Positions 21,542-39,195 of a DNA stretch of 64,000 bases are shown piece by piece (positions within the stretch are counted from its first letter, which is position 1; each line of letters begins with the position of its first letter). The notes under the pieces were generated by a model. It did not search any database. It was given only the letters and a program-made list of their open reading frames with translations, and was not told where the DNA came from. Both the position numbers and the translations under genes were made by a program. Origin of the DNA: an uncultured Anaerolineaceae bacterium (GTDB lineage Bacteria; Chloroflexota; Anaerolineae; Anaerolineales; Anaerolineaceae); the NCBI GenBank assembly GCA_964593905.1, contig CAZQLE010000002.1, positions 3,387-67,386 of the forward strand, in the 5' to 3' direction.

Positions 21542-21585
21542 GGTTTGTCGTCTCCTCAAGGTGTTATGTGGTTTGAAACAACTTA

Positions 21586-21624: not shown

Positions 21625-21803
21625 TGTCGATAACCTGAGAGATTCACTGTGTTTCACAGTTTGCCCCTTCGGTGCCGTTGGACTTTCCAGGAGGTTTATG
21701 ACCGGCAGGGTCCTTTTTACCTGAGAGATTCACCAGAGATGCGAGAGTTTCTGGTTTGCCCCTTCGGTGCCACAGAAAAGTTTACTGTGGTCTCTTCCCT
21801 GCC
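21625..21803 (-). promoter_or_regulatory. Tandem glycine riboswitch (two aptamers)
   Basis: Two copies of the conserved cores GGCACCGAAGGGGCAA (plus-strand complement at 21661-21676 and 21756-21771) and GUGAAUCUCUCAGG (21634-21647 and 21720-21733). Aptamer 1 P1 is GGCAGGG/CCCUGCC (21797-21803 with 21704-21710). Located upstream of gcvH. Confidence 0.85.
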
Positions 21804-21812
21804 TTCTTATTC

Positions 21813-21933: not shown

Positions 21934-22413
21934 TTAATCTCCCGGTTCGGTGGGGTAACCGGCCTGCTGCCAGGCTGCAAACCCTCCCAGAATTGGGTTA
22001 ACACGGGTAAAGTCATTATTGAGAAGCGTTAGCGCCGCACGGGCGCTTGATTCTTCGGCCGGTCAAGTGCAATAGGTGATGATCCATTGTTTTGGATCCA
22101 GTTCATTGATCCGATTTTCCAATTCTCCCAGGGGAATATTGATTGCACCGGGGATGTGGTTTACTGCAAATGCATCGCTGCTGCGCACATCCAGAATGAC
22201 GGCTGTTTTCTCGGTGAAGGTCTTATAGGCGTCGTCAAGCGAAATTCTTTCAATCTGGGCAACATCCGTAATTTCTGTTTTTTGATCCGGGTTTGCCTGG
22301 TTTACAAACAATAAAATTGCCACAACCATCAAGATGACGCCCGCTGCGATAATTAAAAATGGGCGCAGAGATCTTGTGGGTGTTTTGCTTGCACTGCTCT
22401 TCTTTCTTGCCAT
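21934..22413 (-). CDS. Membrane-anchored single-domain rhodanese with an in-frame UGA (22063-22065); candidate selenocysteine protein, otherwise a pseudogene
   Basis: MARKKSS start after AAGGAGG and an N-terminal TM helix. The rhodanese fold reads ...VILDVRSSDAFAVNHIPGAINIPL...WIITYCT-UGA-PAEESSARAALTLLNNDFTRVNPILGGFAAWQQAGYPTEPGD. The fold only completes if the UGA is read through. Confidence 0.6.
22021..22056 (-). promoter_or_regulatory. SECIS-like stem-loop downstream of the in-frame UGA
   Basis: RNA reads UGA CCGGCC GAAG AAUCA AGCGCC-CGUGC-GGCGCU AACG CUUC. 6-bp GC-rich upper stem, GU in the apical loop about 23-25 nt after the UGA, 4-bp lower stem. Confidence 0.4.
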
Positions 22414-22641
22414 GCTGCATCCTCCTTTGGGCGATATTTGAGCCTCGATACGCATATCGCAGCCAGTTTTGTTGTCAATAACCTGTATTGCAGGTTTTTT
22501 ACCCGGTTGCGTGTTACGTATAAATTTTATTATAAATATCCAAATAAATCCACTGATTTAATAAATTCCTGCCTAACTTGCTGTTTAAGCAAAGAAAGGT
22601 GTCTCTCGGCTGTTTTGTTGAAAAAAACGTGATTCTGCGGG

Positions 22642-23940
22642 TTATTGCGTAACGGGTTGTTGCCCTGGCCGGTCAAGCAAAAATAAAGAGGCACCCAGCA
22701 GCCGCAATGATCCGCTTACCAGTAAGGCGCCGGGCAGGCCAATTGTTTCGGCCAACAGGGATGCCAACAGCGGCGCTGCGATTGCCGCGCAATATTCGAG
22801 ACTCTGGGCAACCGAGACAAAGGTGGCGCTGTATTCTGGTGGGATTGTTTTTAATAATTCATCAAAGAAGACCAGATTAATGCCGGCCTGGAAGATGCCG
22901 GCAATGCCGGCATAGACCACGATCAGGGCCGGGGTCTGGGTGAAAGCGGTTAAGATCGGGTAGGAAGCCAGGCCGAAAGTGGTCAACAGGAGCACGAACC
23001 TTGACCCTCTTCGGCGTGATTGCCGGGTCCAGAAAAAATAACCGATGATCAATATGGCCGTCTGGGCGGTATTAATGGCGGCGATCCAGCCATCGGAGGC
23101 GTTAATCTGGCGGACAAAATATAACGGGAACAACGGCAAACCGAGATTTGCCCCGGTGAGGTAGACAAACCGTTTGAATACAAAGGATACAAACGGGCGG
23201 TTTGCGGTGATCTGTTTGTAGTAGGAGTGGATTTTCTCTTTCAGATTGGGGCCGGGAAGTGGGGCATCCACTTGAATGTCGGCGATTCGAATCCGGCTGG
23301 AGAAGGTGTAGCTGATGATCGATCCGATGGAAGTGGTTAGAAAGACGGTCTGAAAGTTTAGCGGAAACTTGATGCTGACCAGCACCTGACCGATGGCAAG
23401 GGCAACCAGTGAGGAGGTTAACCCCAACAATGACCAGCGCCGGGTCATTAATTCATATCTTCCGGCAGGCCCTGCAACGGCATTCATGACCACTGAAAAC
23501 GAAATTGCCAGAACTGTCTGTGGCAGGGTTGCCACGGCCCAGATACATAAGATTGCAATTACGGCGGCCTGGGTGTCTTTGAAAATAAAGGGCACCAGAC
23601 CGGTTAACCCATAGCTGCCGATGACCAGCAGGCGGGAGCTGCTAAACCATCTGACTATATTTTTTTGGCGCTGGAGAAAACGCCCGATCAGGATTGCAAA
23701 AAATAAACCGGTAACCCCGGGCATGGTGGTCAGTAAACCAACTTCCAGGCTGCTGGCCCCAAGCCGGGTGAGGAAAACGGAGAGCATCTGGGCGGCCGCA
23801 TTTCCCAGACCAACACCAACGGCGTCAATCTGAACGTTAACAAAATTCTCTTCACTGATATCGGGGGACTGCGGTGTTCGAAACCATTTAATTAAATTCA
23901 AAAGGCCCCCTCTACGTGATCGGGTTAATTTGAATATCAA
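22642..23940 (-). CDS. MFS transporter
   Basis: About 12 hydrophobic helices and an MFS-like loop GRFLQRQKN. The TTG track start overlaps the upstream stop by 29 nt; an alternative TTG at 23901 is possible. Confidence 0.75.
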   Translation of the reverse strand: MIFKLTRSRRGGLLNLIKWFRTPQSPDISEENFVNVQIDAVGVGLGNAAAQMLSVFLTRLGASSLEVGLLTTMPGVTGLFFAILIGRFLQRQKNIVRWFSSSRLLVIGSYGLTGLVPFIFKDTQAAVIAILCIWAVATLPQTVLAISFSVVMNAVAGPAGRYELMTRRWSLLGLTSSLVALAIGQVLVSIKFPLNFQTVFLTTSIGSIISYTFSSRIRIADIQVDAPLPGPNLKEKIHSYYKQITANRPFVSFVFKRFVYLTGANLGLPLFPLYFVRQINASDGWIAAINTAQTAILIIGYFFWTRQSRRRGSRFVLLLTTFGLASYPILTAFTQTPALIVVYAGIAGIFQAGINLVFFDELLKTIPPEYSATFVSVAQSLEYCAAIAAPLLASLLAETIGLPGALLVSGSLRLLGASLFLLDRPGQQPVTQ

Positions 23941-26173
23941 ACTCGCCGGCTGAAAGCGTCAAGGGTGCGCCCAGCAGAATGTCGTACCTTTGCCGCCAGA
24001 GCAATTGCTCGCGGATGAAGTGCAGCCAGTAAATTTCACCGGCCGGTGAGTGCATTTGTTCAAGACGGCGGTCAATTTCATCGATGGACGGCCTGTCAGG
24101 GTGATCTGTGGGGCTTAGGGCCCAGGCCAGGGTCTGGGTGGAATATTGATAAATATTGCCCGCTGCCGAAACCGCCGTGATCTGGCGCAGGCTGGAATGC
24201 GCCCGGAGCGCGACAATCCGTTTGAGGTCGCTTTCGCCTCCGAGGGTTAATATCTTTTGTCCATTGGACACGCCCCAGATATGAACTGCCCCACGTGCAC
24301 CGGCGCTGAGAATGTAGCGTTCATCAGAGGTAAGGCAGATTTCGCCAAATTTTTCGAGATCATTGGAAATCTGAATCCGGTTGAGTTCTTTGCCGCTGAA
24401 GATATTCCAGATGCAGATGTTGTGATCTGTGCCATACGAGGCGGCCAGCTCTCCGGTGGAGGTGCTCAGCGAAGTTATGGCGCCCGAATGTCCTTTCAGG
24501 GTGCGCAGCGTCCCTCTGGCATCTGCATTCCAGATATGGATTTCACCCTGACCATCGCCGATCAACACATCTCCGCGGCGTGTAGCTGCCAGGGCGTAAA
24601 TTTCACTGCCCGACTGATAGATCGGTTCCTGCCCGCCGGTGGGAAAGCGCCAGCGATTGACAACTCCGTCAAATCCGGCGCTGAAGAGGGTGCGTTCATC
24701 CTGGCTTAGCACGATTGCACGCACCAGATTGCTGTGGCCGGAGAGCGTTTTGATCAGCTTTCCCTCGGGCAGCAGATAGATGCGGATGGATTGGTCGGGG
24801 TTGGCGGCTGCCAGATAAGCGCCATCCTGGGTCAGCAGCAGCACGTTTTGCTGGGGTGTGGGAGGATAGAAAATTGATTTTTCCCAGGTGTTGTCGCTGT
24901 GCGTGGCAAACAGGATGCGGTTGTCAGCGGTTCCGAGCGCCAGGCTTTGCCCCGAAGGCGTGAAGGTGGCTGAAATCACTTCGCCATCCAGCCAGTGAGA
25001 CTGATCGGGTCTCAGTGAAGCCAGCGCGGACAGGGTGCATTTGTGCGCCAGATCGGTTAAGCGCAGGAGCAGTTCTTTTTCTTCAGATGACTGTGGCTGC
25101 CAGGCGGCTTTTTTTAACAGACGAACGCCTTCCAACGCCCACCAGGGCGGCGCGGTTTGGACGAGCACCCACAGCGATGCGTAATCTGCTTTTTTGAAAA
25201 GCGCCTGAAAGGCTGCTGCCCAATCGGCATCCTGCAGGTCTGAAATGGAGCGGGTTTTTGAGATGCCGGGTGCATTTTGCAGCCAGTCAATCTGACCGGA
25301 ATAACGGCTTTGAGCCAGAATTTTCTTTTTGAGCACCGAGCTGGCGCGTTCGTATCCGCTGCGGATTAGACGGCGGTCAAAATCGAGGGTTTCATAGGGG
25401 GCCCACTGCCCGGATATGAAGTAAAACAGCGCCCGGTCGGTCGGGTCGGCGGGGGCCCAACCCTGTTGCAGCGCCAGTTGGCAGGCAGGTTCGGCATCCC
25501 AGCGCAAATAAAGCTGACAGACTGCATCCTGGGCGAGAGGGTTGGCGGGGCCGGCAATCTGAGCCAGGGTTTGCACCGTTAGAGTGCGTTCGGGCCCGGT
25601 CATGGCCGCATACTGGTTGACCAGTTGGTCAAACGCTGCCGGGGTTGGCCCGGAAACGCAGGCTGCCAGCGCAGCCCAATGGTGGAGCCTGGCGCTCGCT
25701 GCCGCCTGAAGGAGGAGGGTGCGGGCATCTTGCTCTGCCCGTAGAAAATAAGCGGTCAGGTGTTGTAAATTGGGGTCGTGCGCCTGCAACGATTGGATCT
25801 GTGCGCTGATTAACAGAAAGGCAGACTGTTGGCCCGCATCGGGGTGGGCGAGGCTGTGTTCGATAATCTCTTGCCGGGCATAGCGGTTTGCAGACGCAAT
25901 GCTCAGCTCAAAGAGTGCATCGATGGCCGGTGCGCTGCCCTGTTTTGCCAGCCGGGCCAGACCGTTGGCGGCGCGCAGGTGAATTGCCTCACACGAGGCG
26001 CGCAGGACGGTTTGTCTCAGAATTTGGATGGCCGCTTCGCCGCCGTCTTCAATTAATAACTGCAACGCCCCAACCTGGGTAAGCAAAAAAATATCTGCTT
26101 GGGATGGGTCTTCCGGCAGAAGTTCTGGTTTTAGAATATCCCGATAGCGGGCAAGCTGCTGTGTTTCGATCAT
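23912..26173 (-). CDS. HEAT-like helical repeat plus C-terminal WD40 beta-propeller protein (paralog A)
   Basis: WD repeats LSGHSNLVRAIVLSQDERTLFSAGFDGVVNRW, LKGHSGAITSLS, HNICIWNI and GAVHIWGV. Central motif ALFYFISGQWAPYETLDFDRRLIRSGYE is shared with 29642-32305. ATG at 26173 forms an ATGA overlap with the radical-SAM stop. Confidence 0.75.
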   Translation of the reverse strand: MIETQQLARYRDILKPELLPEDPSQADIFLLTQVGALQLLIEDGGEAAIQILRQTVLRASCEAIHLRAANGLARLAKQGSAPAIDALFELSIASANRYARQEIIEHSLAHPDAGQQSAFLLISAQIQSLQAHDPNLQHLTAYFLRAEQDARTLLLQAAASARLHHWAALAACVSGPTPAAFDQLVNQYAAMTGPERTLTVQTLAQIAGPANPLAQDAVCQLYLRWDAEPACQLALQQGWAPADPTDRALFYFISGQWAPYETLDFDRRLIRSGYERASSVLKKKILAQSRYSGQIDWLQNAPGISKTRSISDLQDADWAAAFQALFKKADYASLWVLVQTAPPWWALEGVRLLKKAAWQPQSSEEKELLLRLTDLAHKCTLSALASLRPDQSHWLDGEVISATFTPSGQSLALGTADNRILFATHSDNTWEKSIFYPPTPQQNVLLLTQDGAYLAAANPDQSIRIYLLPEGKLIKTLSGHSNLVRAIVLSQDERTLFSAGFDGVVNRWRFPTGGQEPIYQSGSEIYALAATRRGDVLIGDGQGEIHIWNADARGTLRTLKGHSGAITSLSTSTGELAASYGTDHNICIWNIFSGKELNRIQISNDLEKFGEICLTSDERYILSAGARGAVHIWGVSNGQKILTLGGESDLKRIVALRAHSSLRQITAVSAAGNIYQYSTQTLAWALSPTDHPDRPSIDEIDRRLEQMHSPAGEIYWLHFIREQLLWRQRYDILLGAPLTLSAGEFDIQINPIT

Positions 26174-26748
26174 TCGTCCTGCCAACGCAAAGGGGTCGTG
26201 CCGCTGAAAAGCAGTTCACCGGCGGCAGAAATCATTACCTCGGCCTCGGGCAAGTTTTGGAGATCGGCGGCAGAATAGCGGTTGGTCATAAAATGCACGG
26301 TCTGGTTCTTTGAACTGAGGTATCCGTGGCTTGCTGGCGCCTGCTGCCTGTAACGGCCAGCAAACAACAGGTCAATCTGGTTCAAAATTGCCGGGCCCAG
26401 TTTTTGGCGGTTTATTTCTTTAAAATTGTACCCTGAAAACACGACGACGCTCAGCGTCGAACGTTTGCGGAGCAGCGCTAAAAACGCCAGCAGACTTTCG
26501 GGCTGCTGCAACGGCTCGCCCCCGGTAAGGGTAATGCCCTCAATTTCGGCTGCGCCCATAAGACATTGTTCCACCAATTGTTCAACCGCGATCAGGTTTC
26601 CACCTGTGGCGGGGTGGGTGTGAGGATTGAAACACCCCGGGCAGCCCAGCGTGCAGCCCTGCACCCAGATGACCGCGCGGCGTCCCGGGCCATTGGCGCG
26701 GCTTAACGGCGCGTAATGATGTACGCGCAACAGGGCCGGGGCGGTCAT
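26170..26748 (-). CDS. Small radical-SAM protein of the NrdG / glycyl-radical-activase type (192 aa)
   Basis: NGPGRRAVIWVQGCTLGCPGCFNP (CX3CX2C directly after an NGPG box) and TLTGGEPL. Confidence 0.8.
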   Translation of the reverse strand: MTAPALLRVHHYAPLSRANGPGRRAVIWVQGCTLGCPGCFNPHTHPATGGNLIAVEQLVEQCLMGAAEIEGITLTGGEPLQQPESLLAFLALLRKRSTLSVVVFSGYNFKEINRQKLGPAILNQIDLLFAGRYRQQAPASHGYLSSKNQTVHFMTNRYSAADLQNLPEAEVMISAAGELLFSGTTPLRWQDE

Positions 26749-26960
26749 GATCCGGTTTTTCGTTCAATCCGGTTGCGCAAATCCAGGGGCAGTTCTTGAT
26801 CGTACAGCTCGGGGGTCATTTCCTGTTCAATCAATTCTCCACCCAGCGCCATCGAAAGGCTTTCAGTCAGGGTTAGACACTGCTCTCCCTTGACGCCGCG
26901 CACATGAATTTGGACTTTGCCGTGTTCGTCGATAATGACTTCCACTTCTTCAATTTCCAT
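26745..26960 (-). CDS. DUF2997-like small protein (71 aa)
   Basis: MEIEEVEVIIDEHGKVQIHVRGVKGEQCLTLTESLSMALGG matches my recollection of DUF2997. AGGTG RBS and an ATGA overlap with the radical-SAM start. The track start at 27077 would overlap DUF1257. Confidence 0.6.
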   Translation of the reverse strand: MEIEEVEVIIDEHGKVQIHVRGVKGEQCLTLTESLSMALGGELIEQEMTPELYDQELPLDLRNRIERKTGS

Positions 26961-26970
26961 TACCACACCT

Positions 26971-27345
26971 CTATACGATCCGGCGCAATACCAGATGAAT
27001 CTGGTTTTGTTCTTTTGTCTCTTCGGCCAGGGTAAAGCCCTGTTCCTGGAGTTTTTCGAGAGCCGCGTGATAGGCATAGCGCTGCAACAGGGCGGTGGTC
27101 AGTTGTTCACGATCTTTTTTTCGCACGCCCCACCAATCGGCGACCATCTCAAACGCCCCGTTGTTAAATTTCAGGCCGACATCATAACTAAACGGGATGT
27201 GAATTTTCAGTTGAACGGTATCAGCTTCTTGCATACCGCGCAGGTGAAATTCACCCTCTTCGACCTGATAACCCAGGTCTTTCAGGGCGGTGAGCACAAA
27301 CTTTTTTTCAACCATACGGGTTCGTAAACGCGATATGTGCGACAT
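26971..27345 (-). CDS. DUF1257 (Ycf35-like) protein
   Basis: MSHISRLRTRMVEKKFVLTALKDLGY...YDVGLKF...FEMVADWW...LLQRYAYHAALEKLQEQGF is colinear with the Ycf35/DUF1257 pattern (from memory). Confidence 0.7.
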   Translation of the reverse strand: MSHISRLRTRMVEKKFVLTALKDLGYQVEEGEFHLRGMQEADTVQLKIHIPFSYDVGLKFNNGAFEMVADWWGVRKKDREQLTTALLQRYAYHAALEKLQEQGFTLAEETKEQNQIHLVLRRIV

Positions 27346-27357
27346 CTTTTCCTCTAA

Positions 27358-28947
27358 TCAGGTCAAACGAACTACAGGAAATTGATTATAAACCTGTTTG
27401 CCGGTAATCACATCACGGGCGGTGATGGTCAGGCGCTTGTTGTGATCGATAAAGAATTCCACATCAAAACGGGCCTCACCGCGCGAAGCCGGAGGGTTGG
27501 CCTGTAAAAAGGTAGGAGAATGCTCGTTCATCCAGAATAAAGTGCGCTGTTCATGGTCATCAGCCGATATGGGAACAATGCGGGCCGCTCCGCCCGGATC
27601 GAATATCAGCTCGACCCCTTCCCGGCGGGCGGTTTTCGGGTCGCCCATCTCAAAAATTGCCAGGCCAAGTTGTTTTTGACCGTCAAACGCGGCTTTGACC
27701 GAAAGCCGGGCGACAGAATTTTCTGTCGGGTAGGGTGTACCGCGCTGCACAAGAGGGTGGTAGTCATATTTGCCACTCTCGCTGTTGATGTAGCGAATGG
27801 CGTAATCATGCTGGATGTGATCAAAGAAATCGACCCCGGCAGCAAATGCAGCCGCGCCGCGGGCGATGGCATCAAAAGGATGCTGATGAAAAACCCGTTC
27901 TTTGCCAAACAGGGTGCGCATTGTTTTTTGGACGGCCGGGATCAGGCTGCTGCCGCCAACCATCAACACGGCCGAAATGGAGTCTTCGTCGTAACCGCGT
28001 TCGCGCGCCATATTGACCGCGCTGCGGATGACGCTGTGCACCTGGGTTAGAAGGTCATGGGCTTCGAGGATCTCTTCAAATCGTGCGCGGGTGAATTCGG
28101 CCATCAGAATTTCACCCGTATCAGGGTTCATCAGGCTGAACTCTGACTGGTCTTTAAATGAAAGTTCCTCTTTAATCCGTTCACATTCCACCAGAATGGC
28201 ATTGCTAAGCCGTCGTACGGTTTCTTCACCTTCTTCGCGGTGATTGCTGGCCAGAACATCTTCATACAACCATTGATCAATAGCCGATCCGCCTATATCT
28301 CGTCCGGCTTTTCCCAACACCCGGCAGCGGCGGCCATTTTTGGCAGCCGCATCTTCTTCCATTCGTACCACAGCAGCGTGCATGGTGCCGCCGCCAAAAT
28401 CGAACACCAGATAAACACTGCCCGGTTGAATATGCGCGCCATATCCCAGCGCAGCAGCAGACGGCTCATCGATCAACCGATAACGGGGCAGACCTGCGTT
28501 TTCGGCAACGGAGGCGAGCCAGTTTTCATAATGCTCGTAAGCCTCAACCGGAACGCTGAACGCAATTTCTTCATCTTTAAGTTCAAGTTCCTGCGCCAGA
28601 ATGATCAAGACGGTGGATAGAAAATTTTGCCCGGCCAGATAGGGTGTGATTTCCCGGTCATCCACCCGGATTTTTACCGGGCTGCGGTTGCCGATGTACC
28701 GTTTCATCCAGCGAAAGGTGCGGGGTGATTGATAAAGGCCGCGCTGGATCACCTGATTGCCGATCCATTGGCGTTGATCGGCCGTGTAATGGATCAGTGA
28801 AGGAATGACCGAAATGCGGCCGGTATCCTGACCGAGCAAACGGCCATATTCCGGCAGGTGATGAACTTCACCCTGCTGTTGATGCTCATCCCAACGTGCA
28901 ATGACCGTATTGGAAGTGCCAAAATCAATTGCAATGCGACCGCTCAA
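27358..28947 (-). CDS. Non-canonical Hsp70/DnaK-family ATPase (529 aa)
   Basis: Actin-fold NBD motifs IAIDFGTSNT, LIDEPSAAALGYG, VFDFGGGTMH and MVGGSSLIPAV. Short divergent C-terminal domain with no EEVD tail. Confidence 0.85.
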   Translation of the reverse strand: MSGRIAIDFGTSNTVIARWDEHQQQGEVHHLPEYGRLLGQDTGRISVIPSLIHYTADQRQWIGNQVIQRGLYQSPRTFRWMKRYIGNRSPVKIRVDDREITPYLAGQNFLSTVLIILAQELELKDEEIAFSVPVEAYEHYENWLASVAENAGLPRYRLIDEPSAAALGYGAHIQPGSVYLVFDFGGGTMHAAVVRMEEDAAAKNGRRCRVLGKAGRDIGGSAIDQWLYEDVLASNHREEGEETVRRLSNAILVECERIKEELSFKDQSEFSLMNPDTGEILMAEFTRARFEEILEAHDLLTQVHSVIRSAVNMARERGYDEDSISAVLMVGGSSLIPAVQKTMRTLFGKERVFHQHPFDAIARGAAAFAAGVDFFDHIQHDYAIRYINSESGKYDYHPLVQRGTPYPTENSVARLSVKAAFDGQKQLGLAIFEMGDPKTARREGVELIFDPGGAARIVPISADDHEQRTLFWMNEHSPTFLQANPPASRGEARFDVEFFIDHNKRLTITARDVITGKQVYNQFPVVRLT

Positions 28948-29438
28948 AATGGAACCTCTATCATGGCGTCAACGCCGATTTTTCGAATAATCTTGTCGCC
29001 CAAACTCACACCGCAAACCTTGATTATTACCGGGTCATCGGGCGCAATGGACTGATTGCTCCCGAGCAGAAGGTGTTGATCGGGATCGTATGCCGTGGGT
29101 TGGCCGATTTCGCCGGTGAAGGCAACCCCTTTTTTTGACAGGGTTTTTTCAAGCTGTGAAAAGACGCGCAGAACATCGTTGACGCCCACTTTGCTGTTTT
29201 CGGCGGCTGCCAGGCGCGCTTGCGTTTTCCACTGAATCAGCATGGGTGCAAGTTCGGCTATGAGCTGCTCAAAAATTTGTATGTCTGCATCCTGAGAAAA
29301 TAACAGATGCTGTTCTTTTTGTATGCGCAGCTCTTTTTCAAGGTCGGATAGACGCTGATTTTTCTCAAACAACTCGGATTCCAGCGCCTGAATTTTTGCC
29401 TGTGAATCTTGATTAGGGTCTGCGAATTTCGGGTTCAT
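28944..29438 (-). CDS. GrpE-like nucleotide exchange factor
   Basis: N-terminal coiled coil (KIQALESELFEKNQRLSDLEKELRIQKE) and a C-terminal beta domain with AYDPDQHLLL resembling the GrpE FDPxxHxA motif. ATGA overlap with the Hsp70 start. Confidence 0.55.
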   Translation of the reverse strand: MNPKFADPNQDSQAKIQALESELFEKNQRLSDLEKELRIQKEQHLLFSQDADIQIFEQLIAELAPMLIQWKTQARLAAAENSKVGVNDVLRVFSQLEKTLSKKGVAFTGEIGQPTAYDPDQHLLLGSNQSIAPDDPVIIKVCGVSLGDKIIRKIGVDAMIEVPF

Positions 29439-29641
29439 ATTTATCCAACCTGTTCTCTGGCGCCATAAGGCAGGTCTGTTTTGCAGTCCGTCTGGGGCGC
29501 TTTATATTCTCCCGATTTTACCGCGAAAACCCGGTCCATTGAGGATCGGAGCCAGTAACCGGCCTGTTTTAATTGCCATGTTCAATGGCGGGGCTGCCGG
29601 CCATGCTGCGGAAGATTAAATCATTTCTGGTGCTGTTTTTA

Positions 29642-32305
29642 TTAAAGAAGAATATCGTACGCCCCCGGCTTTACATGGGTTAGAACATCAATTTGAACCT
29701 CAAAGCGGTAGTGGTATTGCAGGCAGGCTTGAAGTAACCGCATCCACTTGAGCGTTTGTGAAGCGATGTTATCTGCTGACTGCCACTGCTCCAATAAGGT
29801 GATTAACCCGGCCGGTTGAGCCGAAATGGGGCGATTCCAGTTGTTTGAAAAATCCTGAATCCGCAGATCCCACAGCGAAATGCCGTTTTCGCGCGACCCA
29901 AGGGCAAGGAAGGCGCCGTCGGGTGAGGCGTGAACCGATGTAATATTTTGCCACGGAGATTTAATGGCAGCCAGCAGCTCTAATGATTCGGTAAACAGAT
30001 TTAGATCACCATTTAACCAGGCCACTGCCACCCCTGAACGAGTGGGCAGTTGAATTAACCCCGAGCATTTGGCATCATTTTTAACCAGCGAACGGATTTG
30101 CATGGCTTCACGCCCGGTTTTTTGGGAAAAAATTATGATCTGCCCGTTGGCCAACCCCACCCAGAGCTGTCCGGTTGAATCGGTACCGCACTGCTGGGCG
30201 ATGCTGCGTTTTGTTCCGGGTGTTTTCAACGGGTAAGAGACCAGCCGCCCGCCGGTTTTAAAATCTTCCAGACGAACCGAGTGGAGCATTTCATCAAGCA
30301 GATACAGGAATTTCTCGTCGGGTGAGTTGCAAATGGTGCGAAATGTGCGCGAGAGATTAATTTCGCTGACTTCTGCGGGGTCGAATACGTCCAGTTGGCA
30401 GACACGCATATCGGCGCCGCTGGTGATCAGGGTTCGATCTCCCATTACCAGCAGTGCGGTAACCGACCCCAGATGCTGGTTTAGTTTGCGGGTCTCTTTA
30501 CCATTCCATAACCACACCGAACAGGGTTCTGTGCGTTTTGCGGCGCGCTCTCCCCAGATAATTTCACCCGAAGGGAGACTTTCAACCCGATAGGCTGAAT
30601 GTGCCAGGTTGTCCATCCGGGCGGCAATGACCGCCTCCTGGTAATTCCAACGTACAATTGAGCGGCTGCCCGAGGCGATGGTGAGCAACGGCTCAACCGG
30701 CGAGAAGCTCAAATCATTAATCCGTCCGCTTACCCTGATTTGTGATTGCATTGCCAGCGCAGCAAAAGCCGGTTTTTCAAATTGACCGGCAAAGGAAGCG
30801 TGGATCTGTTTTAGTTCGTTATAAAACACGATATCTTGCTCACCGGGCAACCACTCTGAACGGAAAATTTCTTCCAGCGCCCGGGCAGCGCAAGTAAGTG
30901 GCAAATCGAATAATAATTGCCAAAGCTGGTCCCAGCTTTGATGGTTGATGTGGATATCGATCAGCAGATCTGCTTCATCGCAGCCCATTTCAGGGCGGGC
31001 AGATGTGCTTTTGGCAGAAGATAAAATCTCCAAATCTTCCGGCCGGCCGGCGGACTGAATTTTGCGCGAAATTCGCTTGCGCAGTTCGGGCGCAGCGGCC
31101 GTATACAGCGCCCGCAAAACGCGGCGGTCAAAATCCAGCGCATCATAAGCTGCATATTGCCCGGTGAGATAATAAAACAACGCGCGATCTTCAATTTTGA
31201 TCGGTGCATAACCTGCTTCGGTGGCGATTTTTAACGCGCGGGCGTGGTTTTGGTTGAGCGCCAACCGGCAAAATTCATCCACTGCCGCCCGATCTTGCAA
31301 ACCAGACAGAGCCTGTTGAACATTGGTCTGGATAATGGGGTCTGGCTCATCGATCCACTGGAGGAGGTGGGCAATTGCTTCGGGAATTGTGGTCTCAGAA
31401 ATTAAAGATGCGCCGACTTTGGCACGGGTGAGCAGCCGCAGCGACAGCGGGGCTGAGGCCGTATATTTTGCCCGTACCAGAATATCTTCCAGGTCTGATG
31501 AGCGGGTATCTGCCCACTGCTGGCAAAAAACATCGACTGAGGGTTGAGTGGGCAATGAAGCGCAGAGAAAGCCCGCATTGTGCTGCAAGGCGGGGCTGAC
31601 ATCGTGCATTGCATCGATCAAAATCGGTACAGCTTCTGCGATAACCGGTGTTAACCATTCGGGATGATTGGTCAGCAATGCCGTATATACCACAGCGCGC
31701 AATGGTTCGGTGGGATGATATTGTGTTGCAGTAATTAATGCTGCCAGTGTCGCATCGCGGGTGACCATCCATAATTTGCAAAGGGCGTTGATTGCGTCTT
31801 GCCGTTTGAGGTTGGAAAGCGCATTCCGGGCCCGTTCGGCGACCAGAGGGTCCTTATCTTCACGTTTGATTACCAGAGCGGGAATGAGATCTTCATTAAT
31901 CAAACGTTCCGTATTCTTTTTGTTTAACACCAGCAGGCTTAATGCACGCATCTCTGGCGGGTGTCTGGCGGGTTGATCCAATTCGAGCAGCAGTTCACGG
32001 ATCACCGCGGGGCGATGGTTGCTGGCGTAAACATCCCATAGGATGTCTATCGCAATATTGGAACGAAGGCTGATGAACAGATCGTGCACCGCGCTGTGAA
32101 TTTCAGGGTCATCATACAGCATTAAAAATTTGGCGCATAAGCGCAGCGCCGATTGGTCGCCAGCCCTGGCAAGCTGCACCAACTGGTTCACCGCGGTGCG
32201 CTGCGCCCAACCGCTGACCACGGGGAATTGGATATTGGCGAGGCGTTCCCAGCGCTGTGCTGCGGCGGAGGGCAGAGCGGTGCGTTTTGAGCGATAAGAA
32301 GGCAT
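29642..32305 (-). CDS. HEAT-like repeat plus degenerate WD40/beta-propeller protein (paralog B)
   Basis: Shares ALFYYLTGQYAAYDALDFDRRVLRALY with paralog A. HEAT-like N-terminal half. C-terminal half has repeated beta-strand units (GISLWDL, SIVRWNY, SVWLWNG). Start is 2 nt after the AAA+ stop. Confidence 0.7.
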   Translation of the reverse strand: MPSYRSKRTALPSAAAQRWERLANIQFPVVSGWAQRTAVNQLVQLARAGDQSALRLCAKFLMLYDDPEIHSAVHDLFISLRSNIAIDILWDVYASNHRPAVIRELLLELDQPARHPPEMRALSLLVLNKKNTERLINEDLIPALVIKREDKDPLVAERARNALSNLKRQDAINALCKLWMVTRDATLAALITATQYHPTEPLRAVVYTALLTNHPEWLTPVIAEAVPILIDAMHDVSPALQHNAGFLCASLPTQPSVDVFCQQWADTRSSDLEDILVRAKYTASAPLSLRLLTRAKVGASLISETTIPEAIAHLLQWIDEPDPIIQTNVQQALSGLQDRAAVDEFCRLALNQNHARALKIATEAGYAPIKIEDRALFYYLTGQYAAYDALDFDRRVLRALYTAAAPELRKRISRKIQSAGRPEDLEILSSAKSTSARPEMGCDEADLLIDIHINHQSWDQLWQLLFDLPLTCAARALEEIFRSEWLPGEQDIVFYNELKQIHASFAGQFEKPAFAALAMQSQIRVSGRINDLSFSPVEPLLTIASGSRSIVRWNYQEAVIAARMDNLAHSAYRVESLPSGEIIWGERAAKRTEPCSVWLWNGKETRKLNQHLGSVTALLVMGDRTLITSGADMRVCQLDVFDPAEVSEINLSRTFRTICNSPDEKFLYLLDEMLHSVRLEDFKTGGRLVSYPLKTPGTKRSIAQQCGTDSTGQLWVGLANGQIIIFSQKTGREAMQIRSLVKNDAKCSGLIQLPTRSGVAVAWLNGDLNLFTESLELLAAIKSPWQNITSVHASPDGAFLALGSRENGISLWDLRIQDFSNNWNRPISAQPAGLITLLEQWQSADNIASQTLKWMRLLQACLQYHYRFEVQIDVLTHVKPGAYDILL

Positions 32306-32307
32306 GT

Positions 32308-33846
32308 TTATTTTTTGGATTTAAGCTCAAGCTGAATGGGCACAAACTGATTGGCGGCTTCTTCAAACTCCTGGAAGGAAGCCGATTGGGCGCGCCCTTC
32401 ACGCAGCCAGTTGCGCAGGGTGTCGATGCGTTCGCGCTGTGAGATACTGAGCGGCACCTGTTTGTGAACGGCAGTCATAATATCGGCAGTGGTAAACTCT
32501 CGCTGGTGGTCATTGAAGCCGATATACATGGCATCGATGACCGCCTGTTCAATTTCAGACCCGACATAACCGCTGGTTTCAGCGGCAAGCTGGCTGATTT
32601 GAAAATCAACCGGCAGGCGACCGCGTTTTTTGAGATGAACGGAAAAAATTTCTTCACGCTCTTCCTGGGTTGGCAGATCGAGGAAAAAAATCTCATCAAA
32701 ACGGCCGCGGCGCAGCAATTCGGGCGGCAGACTGGCGATATCATTTGCCGTGGCTACCACAAAGACGGGTGAGGTTTTTTCCTGCATCCAGGTCAAGATG
32801 GTTCCAAAAACGCGGGTGGAGGTGCCGCTGTCAAGCCCGCCGTGGGCCAGCGCTTTTTCCATTTCATCGATCCACAAGATACACGGCGCAACGGTTTCTA
32901 CCAGATGCAGAGCGCGGCGCACTCGTTCTTCCGATTCGCCAACCAATGAGCCGAATAATGCTCCAACATCCAACCGGACCAGCGGCAGCCGCCAGAGACC
33001 ACCGATCATTTTTGCGGTCAGGCTTTTGCCGGTGCCGGGAATGCCGATCAGGGCTATTCCCTTGGGAGAGGGAAGCCCGTAACGTCGGGCTTCGTGGGTG
33101 AAGGCTTGTTCACGCAGGCGCAGCCAGTTTTTTAACACCCCCAGCCCACCAACATCTTCAGGAGATTCAAGCGCTGAAAAGAACTCCAGCGCTTCATTTT
33201 CACGGATGATCTGTTTTTTTTCTTCGGTTACCAGGTCGATATCGCGCTCATCCAGTATGCCGTCGCGGACAATGGCTTTGGCAAATACGCGCTGCGCCTG
33301 GGCAGCGGTCAGCCCCAGCGCTGCCTGGAGCAGCTTCTCTCTGCCCAGAGAGGTCAGGTCAACCTTTACGCCGGGGGTGGCGGTGAGAGAATTCAATACC
33401 CGATCCAGATCTACGGTGGAAGGCAGTGGGTAATCCAGCAAAATGGCCTCATCGCGCAGCTCTTCCGGGATTTTGGCAACCGGAGCTGTGATGATGACCG
33501 ACTTTTTGGAAAATTTTAATCGCTGGCAAACGCTGCGCAGTTTGCGTTTGATTACCGGGTTTGACCAGGATTCGTGGAAATCTTTAAGGATGTATACAGC
33601 GCTGTTGTTGCGGTCTGCTTTTTCAATTTGATCGAGCGCACTGAGCGGGTCTTTACCCGCAGTGGGGCCGCCCGTGCCCGAAAGGGTCTGAAACCCATCG
33701 GCCACATCCCACGAGGCGCAAAGGCGGCTGCTGCGGTCACATAGATTTTTAATAGCCGCAACCATACGTTCCTCTTCGGGAGAAACCAGGATGATCAACG
33801 TAAATTTGGAACGCAAATACATATCCAATTGTTCTTCAAAGTTCAC
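32308..33846 (-). CDS. Ycf46-like classical AAA+ ATPase
   Basis: Walker A GIPGTGKS, Walker [20 protein letters not shown]-terminus [27 protein letters not shown] resembles Ycf46. GTG 33846 is preceded by GGAGG. The track ATG at 33996 lies upstream of the predicted promoter and 10 nt from zur. Confidence 0.8.
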
Positions 33847-33903
33847 AATGGCCTCCGGTTGAGGGCAGCAGCCGATCATTTCATGACATAATCTTGTGGG
33901 GGG

Positions 33904-33932
33904 ATTATACTCTGTGTGAAGCAGATGGGCAA
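33904..33932 (-). promoter_or_regulatory. Promoter for the AAA+ operon
   Basis: Minus strand TTGCCC (33932-33927), 17 nt, TATAAT (33909-33904). Confidence 0.5.
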
Positions 33933-33951: not shown

Positions 33952-33980
33952 TTGACAGTCCTGCAAAAATGCCATACAAT
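33952..33980 (+). promoter_or_regulatory. Consensus sigma70 promoter for zur-znuCB
   Basis: TTGACA (33952-33957), 17 nt, TACAAT (33975-33980). Confidence 0.65.
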
Positions 33981-33995: not shown

Positions 33996-34012
33996 TTTAT
34001 TGAGGTGTGCTG

Positions 34013-34471
34013 ATGGATAATTCACCGAATCCGCAAAATCTTGTCGATACCTGGTTGGAGCGATTGGCCGAAAGTGGTTATCGGATGACGTCGCCGCGGC
34101 GTGTCATTGTGGAAACCGTGGCGATTACAGAACGCGCCTTAAGCCCACTGGATATTTTTGATTTGGCCCGAAAGGACTATCCGGGTCTGGGGTTGGTTAC
34201 GGTTTATCGGACGCTTGAAAAACTGGAAGAACTTGAACTGGTGGAGCGTGTGCATCAGCAGGGTGGCTGTCATATGTATCTGCGCGCCTGCCAGGGGCAT
34301 CAGCATTTGTTGTTGTGCACCAAGTGTGGACGGGCGGAATACTTTAGCGGCGATAACATCAGCTCTCTGATGGATCGGATTGCGCTGCAAAGCGGGTATG
34401 AAATTAAAGATCACTGGTTGCAGCTTTTTGGTTTGTGTGCGCTTTGTCAGAATAACGGATCGGAAAAATAA
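34013..34471 (+). CDS. zur: Fur-family regulator, probably Zur
   Basis: wHTH followed by CTKCGR and CALCQ zinc-site pairs. Located upstream of znuCB. ATG 34013 follows GAGGTG; GTG 34007 is an alternative. Confidence 0.8.
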   Translation: MDNSPNPQNLVDTWLERLAESGYRMTSPRRVIVETVAITERALSPLDIFDLARKDYPGLGLVTVYRTLEKLEELELVERVHQQGGCHMYLRACQGHQHLLLCTKCGRAEYFSGDNISSLMDRIALQSGYEIKDHWLQLFGLCALCQNNGSEK

Positions 34472-34473
34472 TT

Positions 34474-35310
34474 TTGAGTCAGGGTGTATTGTTGAAAAAG
34501 CAGGATATGGATCTTTCTCTGGATGAGGCTTCACCGGCCCGTCTGGATATTCGCGATGTCTTTGCCGGTTATGAAAATCGGATGGTGCTGCAGAATTTAT
34601 CGTTGCAAATCAGTCACGGCGCCAAAGTGGCTGTGGTTGGCCCGAATGGAGCCGGTAAATCCACCTTATTTAAAACCCTGGTTGGGTTGATCCCGGTGCG
34701 GGCCGGTGAGATTTTAATTCACGGGCAGCCGCTTGGCCATCATCAAGACTGTGTGGCCTATGTTCCCCAGCGTGAAGAAGTGGACTGGCGCTTTCCGGTT
34801 ACAGTGACCGATGTGGTGATGATGGGCCGCTTTGGGCGGCTGGGGTGGCTGCAAAGGCCCGGTCAGCACGACCAGGAGATTGTGCGACGCAGCCTGGCAG
34901 CGATGGGCATCAGCGATCTGGCAAAACGATCGATTGGCAATTTGTCGGGCGGACAGCAGCAGCGGGTCTTTTTGGCGCGAGCACTGGCGCAGGAGCCACA
35001 TATTTTATTGTTGGATGAACCGTTTACCGGGGTCGATTCTTCGACCCAGGAGACCACGCTGGATCTGCTGGATAAGCTGCACCGCAAAGCGGTGACGGTG
35101 ATTGTTTCGACCCATGATCTGCAACTGGCCGCAGAACGGTTTGAACAGGTGTTGTTGATCAATAAGCGGGTGGTTGCTTTTGGCGCACCGGATGAAGTAT
35201 TTACCACCGAAAATTTGCAAGAAGCCTTTAGCGGCCAGGTGCTGCGGATGAATGGAAATCTGGTTGTGGACCAGTGTTGCCCGCCGCATGAATTGGAGGG
35301 AAACGAATGA
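34474..35310 (+). CDS. znuC: Metal (zinc/manganese) ABC transporter ATP-binding protein
   Basis: GPNGAGKST, LSGGQQQR, LLLDEP. The start could instead be ATG 34507. Confidence 0.8.
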   Translation: MSQGVLLKKQDMDLSLDEASPARLDIRDVFAGYENRMVLQNLSLQISHGAKVAVVGPNGAGKSTLFKTLVGLIPVRAGEILIHGQPLGHHQDCVAYVPQREEVDWRFPVTVTDVVMMGRFGRLGWLQRPGQHDQEIVRRSLAAMGISDLAKRSIGNLSGGQQQRVFLARALAQEPHILLLDEPFTGVDSSTQETTLDLLDKLHRKAVTVIVSTHDLQLAAERFEQVLLINKRVVAFGAPDEVFTTENLQEAFSGQVLRMNGNLVVDQCCPPHELEGNE

Positions 35311-39107: not shown

Positions 39108-39195
39108 ACGAATACACCCGGTCAACCGTATTTTTTTGGAAAACTTGAAGTATTGTACGCAATTATAGTCTACAATAATGATGATGGAGGCATGG

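Follow-up and report, generated by a model that had tools for sequence, protein, structure and literature searches.

What does a compact bacterial gene cluster do that joins a Ycf46-type AAA+ ATPase to an Hsp70, a GrpE-like exchange factor, the small DUF1257 (Ycf35 family) and DUF2997 proteins, a radical-SAM enzyme and two large WD40 β-propeller proteins? A preliminary description of the locus had proposed a multi-gene system without characterised counterpart, acting either as a protein maturation or repair machine or as an NTP-dependent conflict module, and searches of PADLOC, NCBIfam, Rfam and the literature indeed returned no matching system. Through this cluster, Ycf46 and Ycf35, two protein families that have long lacked an explanation, become linked with an Hsp70 chaperone. 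In cyanobacteria, DUF2997, Ycf35 and the ferredoxin Fed7 are documented as a conserved cluster, Fed7 binds a DnaJ-like protein, and a Ycf46 operon is stress-induced; slr0373 and slr0376 are described only as hypothetical. A stress operon uniting Ycf46, DUF1257 and DUF2997, which the preliminary description had put forward, was not confirmed; the cluster given in the literature is a separate one, in which the partner is Fed7, whereas here a radical-SAM gene follows DUF2997.

Layout and domain content of the cluster

The window (the whole 64-kb stretch of DNA that was analysed) carries the eight genes on its minus strand between 23912 and 33932, all in one direction as first described (Table 1); they are separated by 2-12 nt or overlap by 4 nt, with a single gap of 203 nt, and each of the eight predicted products has an exact match in the protein collection. 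In gene order, the junctions measure 2 nt, 203 nt, a 4-nt overlap (TTGA), 12 nt, 10 nt, ATGA and ATGA; the spacings agree with those reported earlier, with the corrections that the overlap of the GrpE-like and Hsp70 genes is TTGA rather than ATGA, and that protein B starts at the ATG at 26173 and not at a TTG further upstream. The 203-nt gap contains no terminator-like site on the minus (coding) strand, as had been noted, and no Rfam match. The sequence previously taken for the promoter, TTGCCC-17-TATAAT, is present in a 160-nt region common to the AAA+ gene and a divergent Fur-family gene, but matches of this grade occur in the region at chance level (8 found against 8.6 expected), so that only its position argues for it. 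An MFS gene directly follows the cluster, again as described.

Table 1. Positions of the genes and other features of the cluster and its downstream companions in the window.
Feature	Position	Strand	Remarks
Promoter-like site TTGCCC-17-TATAAT	33904-33932	-	10/12 matches; upstream of AAA+ gene
AAA+	32308-33846	-	512 aa; GTG start, GGAGG motif ahead
Solenoid/WD40 protein A (HEAT + WD40 β-propeller)	29642-32305	-	887 aa
Intergenic gap, 203 nt, inside cluster	29439-29641	-	sequence reading
GrpE-like nucleotide exchange factor	28944-29438	-	164 aa
Hsp70-like	27358-28947	-	529 aa; TTG start
DUF1257 (Ycf35 family)	26971-27345	-	124 aa
DUF2997	26745-26960	-	71 aa
Radical SAM, NrdG/PflA-like	26170-26748	-	192 aa; ATGA overlap with each neighbour
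WD40 β-propeller protein B	23912-26173	-	753 aa; paralogue of A
MFS transporter, start uncertain	22642-23940	-	MFS_1 45.8 bits (above cut-off); after protein B
Rhodanese-domain protein, loose associate	22063-22455	-	downstream of MFS

Of the nine domain assignments open to an HMM test, seven score above the curated Pfam cut-offs. Those of the AAA+ (AAA 97 bits, plus AAA_lid_3), Hsp70-like (HSP70 124.5 bits), DUF1257 (72.9 bits), DUF2997 (55.5 bits) and radical-SAM proteins (Fer4_12 96.5 bits, Radical_SAM 36.2 bits) stand as proposed. The GrpE-like protein of the window stays below threshold (17 bits against 25.8), but the cyanobacterial orthologue in locus L036 passes it (36.5 bits). The two large proteins, proposed as HEAT-WD40 paralogues, are indeed related (BLASTP E 1e-17 between A and B) and both have WD40 repeats above cut-off (35 bits in A); HEAT_2 was found in A (35.6 bits), but an HMM search of the first 390 residues of B detected no HEAT repeat.

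Conservation of the core and its variable companions

An Hsp70-anchored scan, with one genome per species, yielded 184 relatives, from 80 of which the loci were examined; gene counts were limited to loci flanked on each side by 6.5 kb or more (31 in Chloroflexota, 5 in Cyanobacteriota; tblastn map). The Chloroflexota loci contain propeller, DUF1257 and DUF2997 genes in 30 cases each, the radical-SAM gene in 29 and the AAA+ gene in 26. All five cyanobacterial loci have AAA+, propeller, DUF1257 and DUF2997 genes, and none has the radical-SAM gene, which was found in Chloroflexota loci and in two further, non-cyanobacterial ones. A locus in Planctomycetota (L062) shows the same parts rearranged, in the order DUF1257, DUF2997, radical SAM, AAA+, second DUF1257, propeller, GrpE-like, Hsp70, and L066 (from an 8.2-Mb assembly) the same order minus the second DUF1257. 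The GrpE-like gene adjoins the Hsp70 gene in many loci. A six-part core of AAA+, solenoid/propeller, GrpE-like, Hsp70, DUF1257 and DUF2997 is found across Chloroflexota, Cyanobacteriota and Planctomycetota. Other genes vary by lineage: a second propeller gene downstream of the radical-SAM gene occurs only in Chloroflexota loci; the MFS gene, present in 21 of the 31 Chloroflexota loci and in no other phylum, is a lineage-specific companion in Anaerolineaceae; and the rhodanese gene (12 of 31, in the tblastn map only in Chloroflexota) is placed downstream of MFS in many loci of Anaerolineaceae and, in Thermanaerothrix, immediately upstream of the Hsp70 gene. The proposed system is therefore not one fixed eight-gene unit, but a real cluster of eight to nine tightly packed genes, whose conservation extends over at least three bacterial phyla.

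Cultured strains or named MAGs from six genera of Anaerolineaceae carry the cluster (Anaerolinea, Longilinea, Levilinea, Bellilinea, Ornatilinea and Thermanaerothrix). Among the named carriers, many seem to grow as filaments or to be multicellular. Outside Chloroflexota, carriers are patchy (Cyanobacteriota, Planctomycetota, Moduliflexus and others), with 56-61% identity in Hsp70. In the window, the neighbours are gcvH/gcvP behind a glycine riboswitch, Fur with an ABC transporter, AlaRS, AFOR and GlmS; AFOR and GlmS also stand upstream of the cluster in Longilinea, and a Chloroflexi MAG keeps the cluster between other flanks. A chance juxtaposition of unrelated genes, to which the 203-nt gap and the indifferent promoter match might point, is rejected with near certainty, since the same families occur together in 30 of the 31 fully flanked Chloroflexota loci and again, with other order and flanks, in other phyla; the linkage thus extends beyond the source genome.

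Properties of the components

The AAA+ protein begins with a conserved N-terminal domain, some 245 residues long, to which no Pfam family corresponds, and continues with a single AAA module of the classical clade; its nearest solved relatives are Cdc48/p97/VAT. Walker A, Walker B and an arginine-rich RRGRFDE stretch are intact, and the pore-loop stretch SLVGESE is kept in 43 orthologues. The N-domain is common to plastid-encoded proteins of 493-494 aa, the size of Ycf46, and the label 'Ycf46-like' is thus reasonable. Elsewhere, the Ycf46-type N-domain and AAA module are fused to Lon and trypsin-like proteases, which would fit an unfoldase role. The Hsp70 comprises a nucleotide-binding domain, with intact DFGTSN and DFGGGT motifs, and the β substrate-binding domain, and lacks the helical lid: its second structural match covers the last strands of the substrate-binding domain of Hsc70, at which point the protein ends. 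None of the 80 loci has a gene for a J-domain protein within 10 kb; the Hsp70 therefore uses an unlinked J-protein or acts without one.

DUF1257 has an invariant N-terminal S-H, the motifs DW and QRY, and an α/β fold in its AF2 model (pLDDT 82), for which the PDB contains no significant structural match; DUF2997 has the conserved core GxVx5GxxGxxCL...T...E..LG..., in which one cysteine alone is invariant, and an unreliable model (pLDDT 51). The small proteins thus offer no functional clue. The radical-SAM enzyme retains the cluster motif CxxxCxxC, GGEP and an N-terminal NGPGxR, which aligns to DGPGIR of pyruvate formate-lyase (PFL) activase, also its nearest solved structure (3c8f, E 2e-7); it resembles glycyl-radical activases. 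No glycyl-radical enzyme was found among ten large ORFs scanned in the window, in line with the earlier remark that its substrate enzyme is not visible. As DUF2997, DUF1257, Hsp70 and AAA+ have no residue whose conservation is restricted to loci with a radical-SAM gene, the partner proteins do not reveal its target, which could also be a small molecule.

The engines of the cluster are conserved across phyla (identity 65-77% for AAA+, about 56-67% for Hsp70), whereas the propeller proteins, aligned from 34 orthologues, are variable (24-34%). A shared tail, RFDIEL...GEFDIEL, nevertheless ends every listed full-length propeller paralogue in all phyla; it reads RFEVQIDV...GAYDILL in protein A and RYDILL...GEFDIQI in protein B, which also has a mid-domain motif common to A. 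When the called ORFs of all loci were scanned for this tail, no ORF of another family had it; the tail is likely a docking signal.

A putative remodelling machine and its alternatives

The explanation that we prefer, tentatively and at slightly below an even chance, is that the cluster encodes a dedicated Hsp70/AAA+ protein-remodelling machine, whose adaptors are tagged by their tails and whose cofactor pair, DUF1257/DUF2997, is linked to Fe-S. Driven by ATP, it would serve the cell itself, in its stress or redox physiology. Its core would be formed by the one-module Ycf46-type AAA+, the lidless Hsp70 and the GrpE-type exchange factor dedicated to it, DUF1257/DUF2997 and at least one solenoid/propeller protein. 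The propeller proteins would be exchangeable adaptors or clients, docked by their tail on the Hsp70 substrate-binding domain or on the N-domain and pore of the AAA+; the exchange factor would govern binding and release by Hsp70, and the AAA+ ring would unfold or disassemble the adaptor-held proteins. DUF1257/DUF2997, as a conserved cofactor pair, may couple the machine to a [4Fe-4S] protein, namely Fed7 in the separate cyanobacterial cluster and the radical-SAM enzyme here. The latter would most likely abstract a hydrogen from, or otherwise modify, a protein of the system, with DUF2997 as the prime candidate; the lack of this add-on in cyanobacterial loci possibly reflects oxygen-sensitive radical chemistry. 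Several findings count against this reading: no J-domain protein is encoded near the Hsp70, no partner residue points to the target of the radical-SAM enzyme, the models of the two small proteins give no lead, the first pore loop of the AAA+ has Leu at a position that is aromatic in most unfoldases, and the propeller paralogues number one to five per locus (four in L043, as many as five matching segments in L046), resembling the sensor families of conflict systems.

The conflict option of the preliminary description, in which propellers would sense an invader, AAA+ and Hsp70 would act as threshold switches and radical SAM or MFS would provide the effector output, is unlikely by comparison. It could draw on these fast-evolving paralogues of variable copy number, on the patchy spread outside Chloroflexota, which suggests horizontal transfer because Hsp70 identity is still 56-61% there, on fusions that elsewhere join Ycf46-type AAA+ modules to TerD, kinase and protease domains, and on a weak similarity of the AAA module to the defence ATPase IetA (79 bits). 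The apparent habit of the carriers also matches the niche of the chaperone-based conflict systems found in filamentous or multicellular bacteria (Kaur et al., 2020), but the MoxR-vWA or GTPase cores of those systems are absent from the cluster. Moreover, the IetA and PDC-M61B matches span generic ATPase folds only, NCBIfam IteA reaches 73.5 bits against a cut-off of 510, viperin models reach just 13-14 bits, and nothing in the cluster is recognisable as an effector, be it a nuclease, a protease, a TIR domain or a pore-former. Among 2.9 million viral contigs, none carries the Hsp70 family of the cluster, whose distribution takes in six Anaerolineaceae genera, and a mobile or defence island is disfavoured because the neighbours are housekeeping genes with conserved synteny.

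Hsc70 uncoats clathrin, and Vps4 and NSF recycle subunits. By analogy, the Hsp70 could strip a coat-like or cytoskeleton-like solenoid/propeller scaffold by its tail and the AAA+ recycle it, in a cycle of assembly and disassembly; we consider this improbable. It would account for the α-solenoid with β-propeller and extreme C-terminal motif in every paralogue, for the lidless, specialised Hsp70, whose highly conserved substrate-binding domain implies a fixed client motif, and for the Vps4-like succession of dedicated N-domain and one classical AAA module. In L032, moreover, the AAA+ N-domain is fused to a tail-bearing HEAT protein, but this fusion comes from one MAG only and may be the product of faulty assembly or of a frameshift. 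The solenoid-then-propeller order is the reverse of that in eukaryotic coat proteins, membrane-binding or polymerisation signals and an auxilin-type J-protein are missing, and DUF1257/DUF2997 and the radical-SAM enzyme would be left unexplained. Still less probable is that the radical-SAM gene encodes an ordinary anaerobic ribonucleotide reductase or PFL activase for an unlinked glycyl-radical enzyme, beside a separate chaperone unit. The PFL activase structure, the best NCBIfam models (NrdG 98.8 bits, PflA 62.5 bits) and the lack of a tracking residue in the partners speak for it; against it stand the NrdG equivalog cut-off of 126.1 bits, which the enzyme does not reach, the lack of a glycyl-radical enzyme among the ten large ORFs scanned, the ATGA overlaps of the gene with both neighbours in the window, and a constant position, since in 49 of 51 loci, the rearranged L062 and L066 among them, the gene directly follows DUF2997.

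Composition and recurrence of the cluster

The gene cluster is real and conserved, and apparently undescribed. All eight co-directional genes claimed in the preliminary description are present and lie on the minus strand, with an MFS and a rhodanese gene downstream of them; two starts are corrected, that of the AAA+ gene to a GTG preceded by a GGAGG motif, and that of the gene for propeller B, the second of two large repeat proteins, to an ATG that forms an ATGA overlap with the stop codon of the radical-SAM gene. With these starts, all eight products exactly match sequences of the protein collection, each recorded on one 86,517-nt NCBI contig. The junctions of 2, 203, 12 and 10 nt and two ATGA overlaps stand as first described, but the GrpE-like and Hsp70 genes overlap by TTGA, not ATGA; the Hsp70 gene has a TTG start. 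As had been claimed, the 203-nt gap holds no terminator-like site on the coding strand. The promoter proposed for the series, TTGCCC-17-TATAAT, is present, but such matches occur in the region only at chance number (8 found, 8.6 expected); in the 160-nt region shared with a divergent Fur-family gene, the better promoter match (TTGACA-17-TACAAT) lies on the plus strand.

The proposed domains score above curated Pfam cut-offs in all but two cases: AAA with AAA_lid_3, HSP70, DUF1257, DUF2997, Fer4_12 with Radical_SAM, and MFS_1, together with WD40 in both propeller proteins and HEAT_2 in propeller A. The exceptions are the GrpE-like protein of the window, at 17 bits against a cut-off of 25.8 (the cyanobacterial orthologue of Pleurocapsales LEGE 06147 reaches 36.5 bits), and the first 390 residues of propeller B, which give no HEAT match in Pfam. 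The orthology of the GrpE-like proteins across loci is based on position and 25-36% identity; the paralogy of the two propeller proteins is clear (E 1e-17), as claimed.

Linkage beyond this genome was surveyed with Hsp70 as anchor in one genome per species, giving 184 relatives; nine proteins of the window were mapped onto the best 80 of these 184 loci, and counts are restricted to loci with at least 6.5 kb on each side. The linkage is conserved in Chloroflexota, Cyanobacteriota and Planctomycetota. Among 31 loci of Chloroflexota, the AAA+ gene is found in 26, propeller, DUF1257 and DUF2997 genes in 30 each, and radical-SAM, MFS and rhodanese genes in 29, 21 and 12, respectively; all five loci of Cyanobacteriota have the first four and none has any of the last three. 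The planctomycetotal locus L062 is arranged as DUF1257, DUF2997, radical SAM, AAA+, second DUF1257, propeller, GrpE-like, Hsp70; locus L066, in an 8.2-Mb assembly, has the same order minus the second DUF1257 gene, and the flanks of the two are unrelated. Longilinea arvoryzae and a Chloroflexi MAG show the same gene series as the window between different flanks. Members of the Hsp70 family from many genomes share 56-67% identity. Since the families are linked across phyla, gene orders and flanks, chance juxtaposition is excluded. The cluster resolves into a six-part core (GrpE-like protein, Hsp70, AAA+, propeller, DUF1257, DUF2997) and lineage-specific additions: MFS and rhodanese proteins in Anaerolineaceae and, in loci other than the cyanobacterial ones, the radical-SAM enzyme. 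The closest relatives are from Anaerolineae. Cultured strains that carry the cluster are Longilinea arvoryzae KOME-1, Anaerolinea thermolimosa IMO-1 and Thermanaerothrix solaris, and a cyanobacterial isolate, Pleurocapsales LEGE 06147, has it as well.

Members of the same Hsp70 subfamily also occur on short contigs with possible binning errors: in MAGs of Armatimonadota, Burkholderiales and Eremiobacterota (L042, L074, L079, L080) the GrpE-like protein is the sole recognisable partner, and in Verrucomicrobiota and Gemmatales (L058, L072, L083) no partner was found beside Hsp70. A 515-aa ORF recurring upstream of GrpE-Hsp70 in the Burkholderiales and Eremiobacterota MAGs was rejected as a spurious ORF of low complexity. 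In 'Anaerolineaceae bacterium 4572_78' (L067), an Hsp70 homologue without the usual partners adjoins a different radical-SAM protein of 568 residues on the opposite strand.

Coordinates of features in the window and in related loci
Sequence	Positions	Strand	Feature
Window	49-5639	+	TPR-rich protein, then C25 peptidase-domain protein
Window	18335-21604		gcvH-gcvPA-gcvPB
Window	21698-21809	-	Glycine riboswitch aptamer (RF00504, 60.7 bits, E 9e-11)
Window	23912-33932	-	Eight-gene cluster
Window	26173	-	ATG start of propeller B
Window	33846	-	GTG start of AAA+
Window	33932-33904	-	TTGCCC-17-TATAAT match
Window	33952-33980	+	TTGACA-17-TACAAT match
Window	34007-34471	+	Fur-family regulator, divergent from AAA+ gene
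Window	34474-35310		Metal-type ABC transporter, ATPase; divergent from AAA+ gene
Window	35307-36158		Metal-type ABC transporter, ABC-3 permease; divergent from AAA+ gene
Window	37080-39380	-	766-aa ORF
Window	39178-40668	+	496-aa ORF
L021	5729-6142		Second DUF1257 gene
L032	2150-5749		1199-aa ORF
L043	330-9399		Four tail-bearing propeller copies
L043	2523-2924		Second DUF1257 gene
L046	710-9130		Up to five propeller-matching segments
L062	5856-6263		Second DUF1257 gene
L067	11710-13416	-	Hsp70 homologue
L097	7795-8378		DUF2997-DUF1257 pair

The ATPases and the propeller proteins

The AAA+ protein has a single module of the classical clade (AAA 97 bits, AAA_lid_3 28 bits, Pfam), with Walker A, Walker B and the second region of homology; its conserved stretches are a 13-residue Walker sequence and RRGRFDE, and its best solved relatives are Cdc48, p97 and VAT. 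The preceding N-domain of 245 residues belongs to no Pfam family; used alone as query, it matches 3472 cluster representatives. These include proteins 493-494 aa long that are encoded in the plastids of Aureococcus and Cryptomonas (31-35% identity) and are named only generically at source, as 'SpoVK/Ycf46/Vps4 family' or FtsH. An N-domain common to the AAA+ protein and plastid-encoded proteins of Ycf46 size supports the label 'Ycf46-like'. In other proteins with this N-domain (among them P0340, P0372, P0296, P0318, P0279, P0314, P0276 and P0281), the N-domain and AAA module are fused to Lon protease, trypsin-like peptidase, TerD or a Ser/Thr kinase, several with inteins inside the AAA domain; the fusions to Lon and trypsin-like proteases fit an unfoldase role.

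In cyanobacteria, Ycf46 is known from a stress-responsive operon of three genes (slr0373-slr0374-slr0376; Synpcc7942_0416-0418), whose expression is induced by many stresses and whose function is stated as unknown; slr0373 and slr0376 are called only 'hypothetical' in the published descriptions found, which do not confirm the AAA+/DUF1257/DUF2997 trio of the preliminary description. Ycf46 and Ycf35 are conserved in cyanobacteria and algal plastid genomes, and the published accounts found deal only with stress induction and mutant phenotypes. The present cluster is linked to this operon by its Ycf46-like AAA+ protein, with an N-domain of the type seen in plastid-encoded proteins of Ycf46 size; it also has an Hsp70, an exchange factor, a propeller protein and a radical-SAM enzyme, none of which is reported there.

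The Hsp70 has a complete actin-fold nucleotide-binding domain (HSP70 124.5 bits, Pfam), in which D8, G10-S12 and D183-T188 are invariant. Of the β substrate-binding domain, only the last strands are matched (11.9 bits, residues 481-518); with its end at residue 529, the protein has no room for a helical lid and lacks one. No J-domain is found within 10 kb in 80 loci (tblastn with the J-domains of DnaJ and HscB), and the sole match in the window is insignificant (E 0.11); a J-protein encoded elsewhere in the genome may exist. An HPD tripeptide in propeller B, considered as part of a hidden J-domain, is not conserved and comes with no similarity to J-domains. In the Hsp70-ClpB/Hsp104 bi-chaperone disaggregase, Hsp70 and its exchange factor work with an AAA+ protein, and HscA/HscB is a dedicated Hsp70 system. 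The cluster resembles the former in pairing an Hsp70 and a nucleotide exchange factor with an AAA+ protein, and its Hsp70 resembles HscA in being specialised, probably for a fixed client. It differs from both in a lidless Hsp70 with no J-protein encoded nearby, and in its further components: the propeller proteins as putative adaptors, the two DUF proteins and the radical-SAM enzyme. Its AAA+ protein, moreover, has a single classical module like that of Cdc48, where ClpB and Hsp104 have the two modules of the Clp/Hsp100 type.

The propeller proteins are only 24-34% identical across phyla, whereas the ATPases are far more conserved (AAA+ 65-77%, Hsp70 56-66%). Every full-length propeller paralogue listed, from every phylum, nevertheless ends in a tandem motif, here called the tail: [RQ][FY][DE][IV]x[ILV], followed after 7-10 residues by (G)[ED][FY]D[IV]x[IL], within about 15 residues of the C-terminus. 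Among the called ORFs of the 80 loci the tail is confined to the propeller family, whose paralogues also share a motif in mid-domain, RALFYFLTGQW..YE.LDFD. Their arrangement varies: upstream of GrpE-Hsp70, locus L043 has four copies, all tail-bearing, and locus L046 up to five matching segments, and in Pleurocapsales LEGE 06147 (L036) the solenoid and propeller parts are encoded by separate genes. In a Phormidiaceae MAG (L032), one ORF consists of the AAA+ N-domain, behind which an AAA module is not detectable, and a HEAT protein that has the tail at its end; this ORF may be either a Rosetta-stone fusion or an artefact of assembly or frameshift.

The DUF1257/DUF2997 pair and the radical-SAM enzyme

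DUF1257 is conserved in an invariant N-terminal Ser-His, a DW motif and a QRY motif. The AF2 model of DUF1257 is of good confidence (pLDDT 82), yet Foldseek finds no significant structural relative in the PDB (best E 0.29), and a profile search of PDB sequences gave no match. The conserved core of DUF2997 contains a single invariant cysteine (GxxGxxC); it is family-wide and is found also in distant viral-contig homologues that lack the radical-SAM enzyme. The structure of DUF2997 was predicted from the single sequence, because the homologue search returned only the query itself, and the model is unusable (pLDDT 51). An apparent RLRGG consensus end suggested a ubiquitin-like or sulfur-carrier protein, but the C-terminal end is variable, with GG in just 8 of 64 orthologues, so that this assignment was rejected. 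In some loci (L021, L043, L062), the AAA+ gene is immediately followed by another DUF1257 gene of greater divergence (32-41% identity); that of L062 scores 68 bits with the Pfam model.

According to Cassier-Chauvat and Chauvat (2014, PMC4284462), DUF2997 and Ycf35 (DUF1257) form a cluster in cyanobacteria with Fed7, a [4Fe-4S] bacterial-type ferredoxin that binds a DnaJ-like protein; in photosynthetic eukaryotes this pairing has become fixed in the form of a DnaJ-Fer fusion. Both there and here, adjoining DUF2997 and DUF1257 genes lie next to the gene for a [4Fe-4S] protein, with a link to the Hsp70 system, which there runs through the binding of the DnaJ-like protein by Fed7. The differences are that the order is reversed here (DUF1257, then DUF2997), also with respect to the viral-contig pairs, that the third gene is a radical-SAM enzyme and no ferredoxin domain occurs in the cluster, and that the pair is embedded with Hsp70, exchange factor, AAA+ and propeller proteins. 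Ycf35-type DUF2997-DUF1257 pairs also occur on marine viral contigs (L084, L101, L104, L112 and the 74-kb IMG/VR contig L097), with which the cluster pair shares just 25-41% identity; AAA+, Hsp70 and ferredoxin genes were not seen beside them. Two ORFs downstream of the pair in L097 resemble phage baseplate genes by eye, and this contig may come from a cyanomyophage.

The radical-SAM gene directly follows that of DUF2997 in 49 of 51 loci. Its product resembles NrdG and PflA in the CxxxCxxC motif, the GGE SAM motif and an N-terminal (D/N)GPGxR, all conserved in 49 orthologues; it is near NrdG in size and aligns with the pyruvate formate-lyase activase 3c8f, including the N-terminal GPGxR motif. 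It differs from them in a conserved C-terminal extension of 40 residues, in its fixed place beside DUF2997, and in its scores: the best model, NrdG TIGR02491, gives 98.8 bits, below the equivalog cut-off of 126.1, and the PFLA model 62.5 bits, below 231.75. The absence of a visible substrate enzyme, noted from the start, holds for the cluster and the ten large window ORFs scanned, which contain no Gly_radical, PFL-like or NrdD domain. Residues conserved only in loci bearing the radical-SAM gene were sought in DUF2997, DUF1257, Hsp70 and AAA+ and include no candidate radical site; only two columns differ with its presence, Hsp70 E260 and AAA+ L333.

A possible remodelling machine and its alternatives

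The families of the single parts are known; taken together, these are best seen as a new form of the chaperone/unfoldase systems, and as an expanded relative of the Ycf46 and Ycf35 modules. Conserved ATPase engines, a private exchange factor and variable repeat proteins with one terminal motif point to a dedicated remodelling machine, and the interpretation given in the preliminary description is supported in part. In the mechanism we tentatively put forward from these sequence comparisons, which seems to us a serious possibility though somewhat short of probable, the propeller proteins would be adaptors or clients that dock via the tail, the DUF1257/DUF2997 pair would couple an Fe-S protein to Hsp70-type chaperone action, and the radical-SAM enzyme would modify a protein of the system. 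The coupling is proposed because DUF2997 and Ycf35 go with Fed7 and a DnaJ-like protein in cyanobacteria, and the pair here lies between Hsp70 and a [4Fe-4S] radical-SAM enzyme.

The main rival, likewise retained from the preliminary description, is a defence or conflict system. In its favour are the variable number of propeller paralogues and the patchy distribution outside Chloroflexota; many of the named carriers also appear to be filamentous. Chaperone-based ternary conflict systems, which combine MoxR-vWA pairs or GTPases with effector-associated domains and in some cases include Hsp70 and GrpE, are enriched in multicellular bacteria (Kaur, Burroughs, Iyer and Aravind, 2020, PMC7159879). 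The cluster is similar to them in bringing NTPase chaperones together with repeat proteins, but has no MoxR-vWA, GTPase, effector-associated domain or recognisable effector, and the cores in two papers from the Aravind laboratory are unlike its own. PADLOC-DB v2 gives no single-system match, only generic ATPase-fold matches to IetA (79 bits), TRIP13 and PDC-M61B (40 bits) and one to pVip (14 bits), and nothing for six of the nine proteins. In agreement with the initial claim that no characterised system has this composition, none was found in PADLOC, NCBIfam, Rfam or the literature searched, the latter covering DUF1257/DUF2997, Ycf46/Ycf35, Hsp70 with Ycf46, radical SAM, WD40 or AAA+, and conflict systems. 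The gene context also speaks against defence, being of a housekeeping kind: the window further encodes AlaRS, two AFOR proteins, GlmS, Nuo and POR, and AFOR and GlmS genes flank the cluster in Longilinea too. The cluster thus lies in a stable part of the chromosome and on no mobile or defence island. A phage or mobile-element origin was rejected, as the Hsp70 family is absent from viral contigs, where only the distant Ycf35-type DUF2997-DUF1257 pairs occur.

By analogy with Hsc70, which recognises the tail of clathrin, the cluster might instead encode a prokaryotic assembly/disassembly cycle for solenoid/β-propeller scaffolds, in which the lidless Hsp70 would act on the tail and the AAA+ protein would recycle the scaffold subunits in the manner of Vps4 or NSF; the radical-SAM enzyme of anaerobes would place a protein-radical switch on DUF2997/DUF1257, by which the redox state would gate the cycle. 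Such a cycle seems to us very improbable; were it true, the Ycf46 and Ycf35 proteins of cyanobacteria and plastids would be remnants of the machine.

As to the dedicated remodelling machine, close relatives of Ycf46 and Ycf35 stand in the cluster together with DUF2997, an Hsp70 and its exchange factor, and tail-tagged propellers, all in a single operon, and this combination is seen in three phyla. It offers the testable hypothesis that the Ycf46 and Ycf35 relatives belong to an Hsp70/AAA+ remodelling machine with a link to Fe-S proteins, or act as its cofactors. The cluster also presents an enzyme like a glycyl-radical activase, without a glycyl-radical enzyme as partner, fixed beside a protein of 70 residues; should this enzyme act on one of the cluster's own proteins, radical-SAM protein chemistry would extend into chaperone regulation. 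Since there are cultured carriers, experiments are feasible. Through the cluster, the function of Ycf46 and Ycf35 can be tested directly.

Other features of the window were noted beside the cluster. Just downstream, a glycine riboswitch lies upstream of gcvH-gcvPA-gcvPB and marks the start of a separate transcription unit. On the other side, the divergent arrangement of Fur regulator and ABC transporter is absent from the listed genes of the Longilinea and L002 loci. Farther off, there is a 766-aa ORF for which Pfam gives no family at E 1e-5, and which overlaps an ORF of 496 aa, encoded on the opposite strand, at the start of the latter; at the far end of the window a TPR-rich protein of 954 residues is followed by one of 909 residues with a C25 (gingipain-like) peptidase domain, both apparently unrelated to the cluster.
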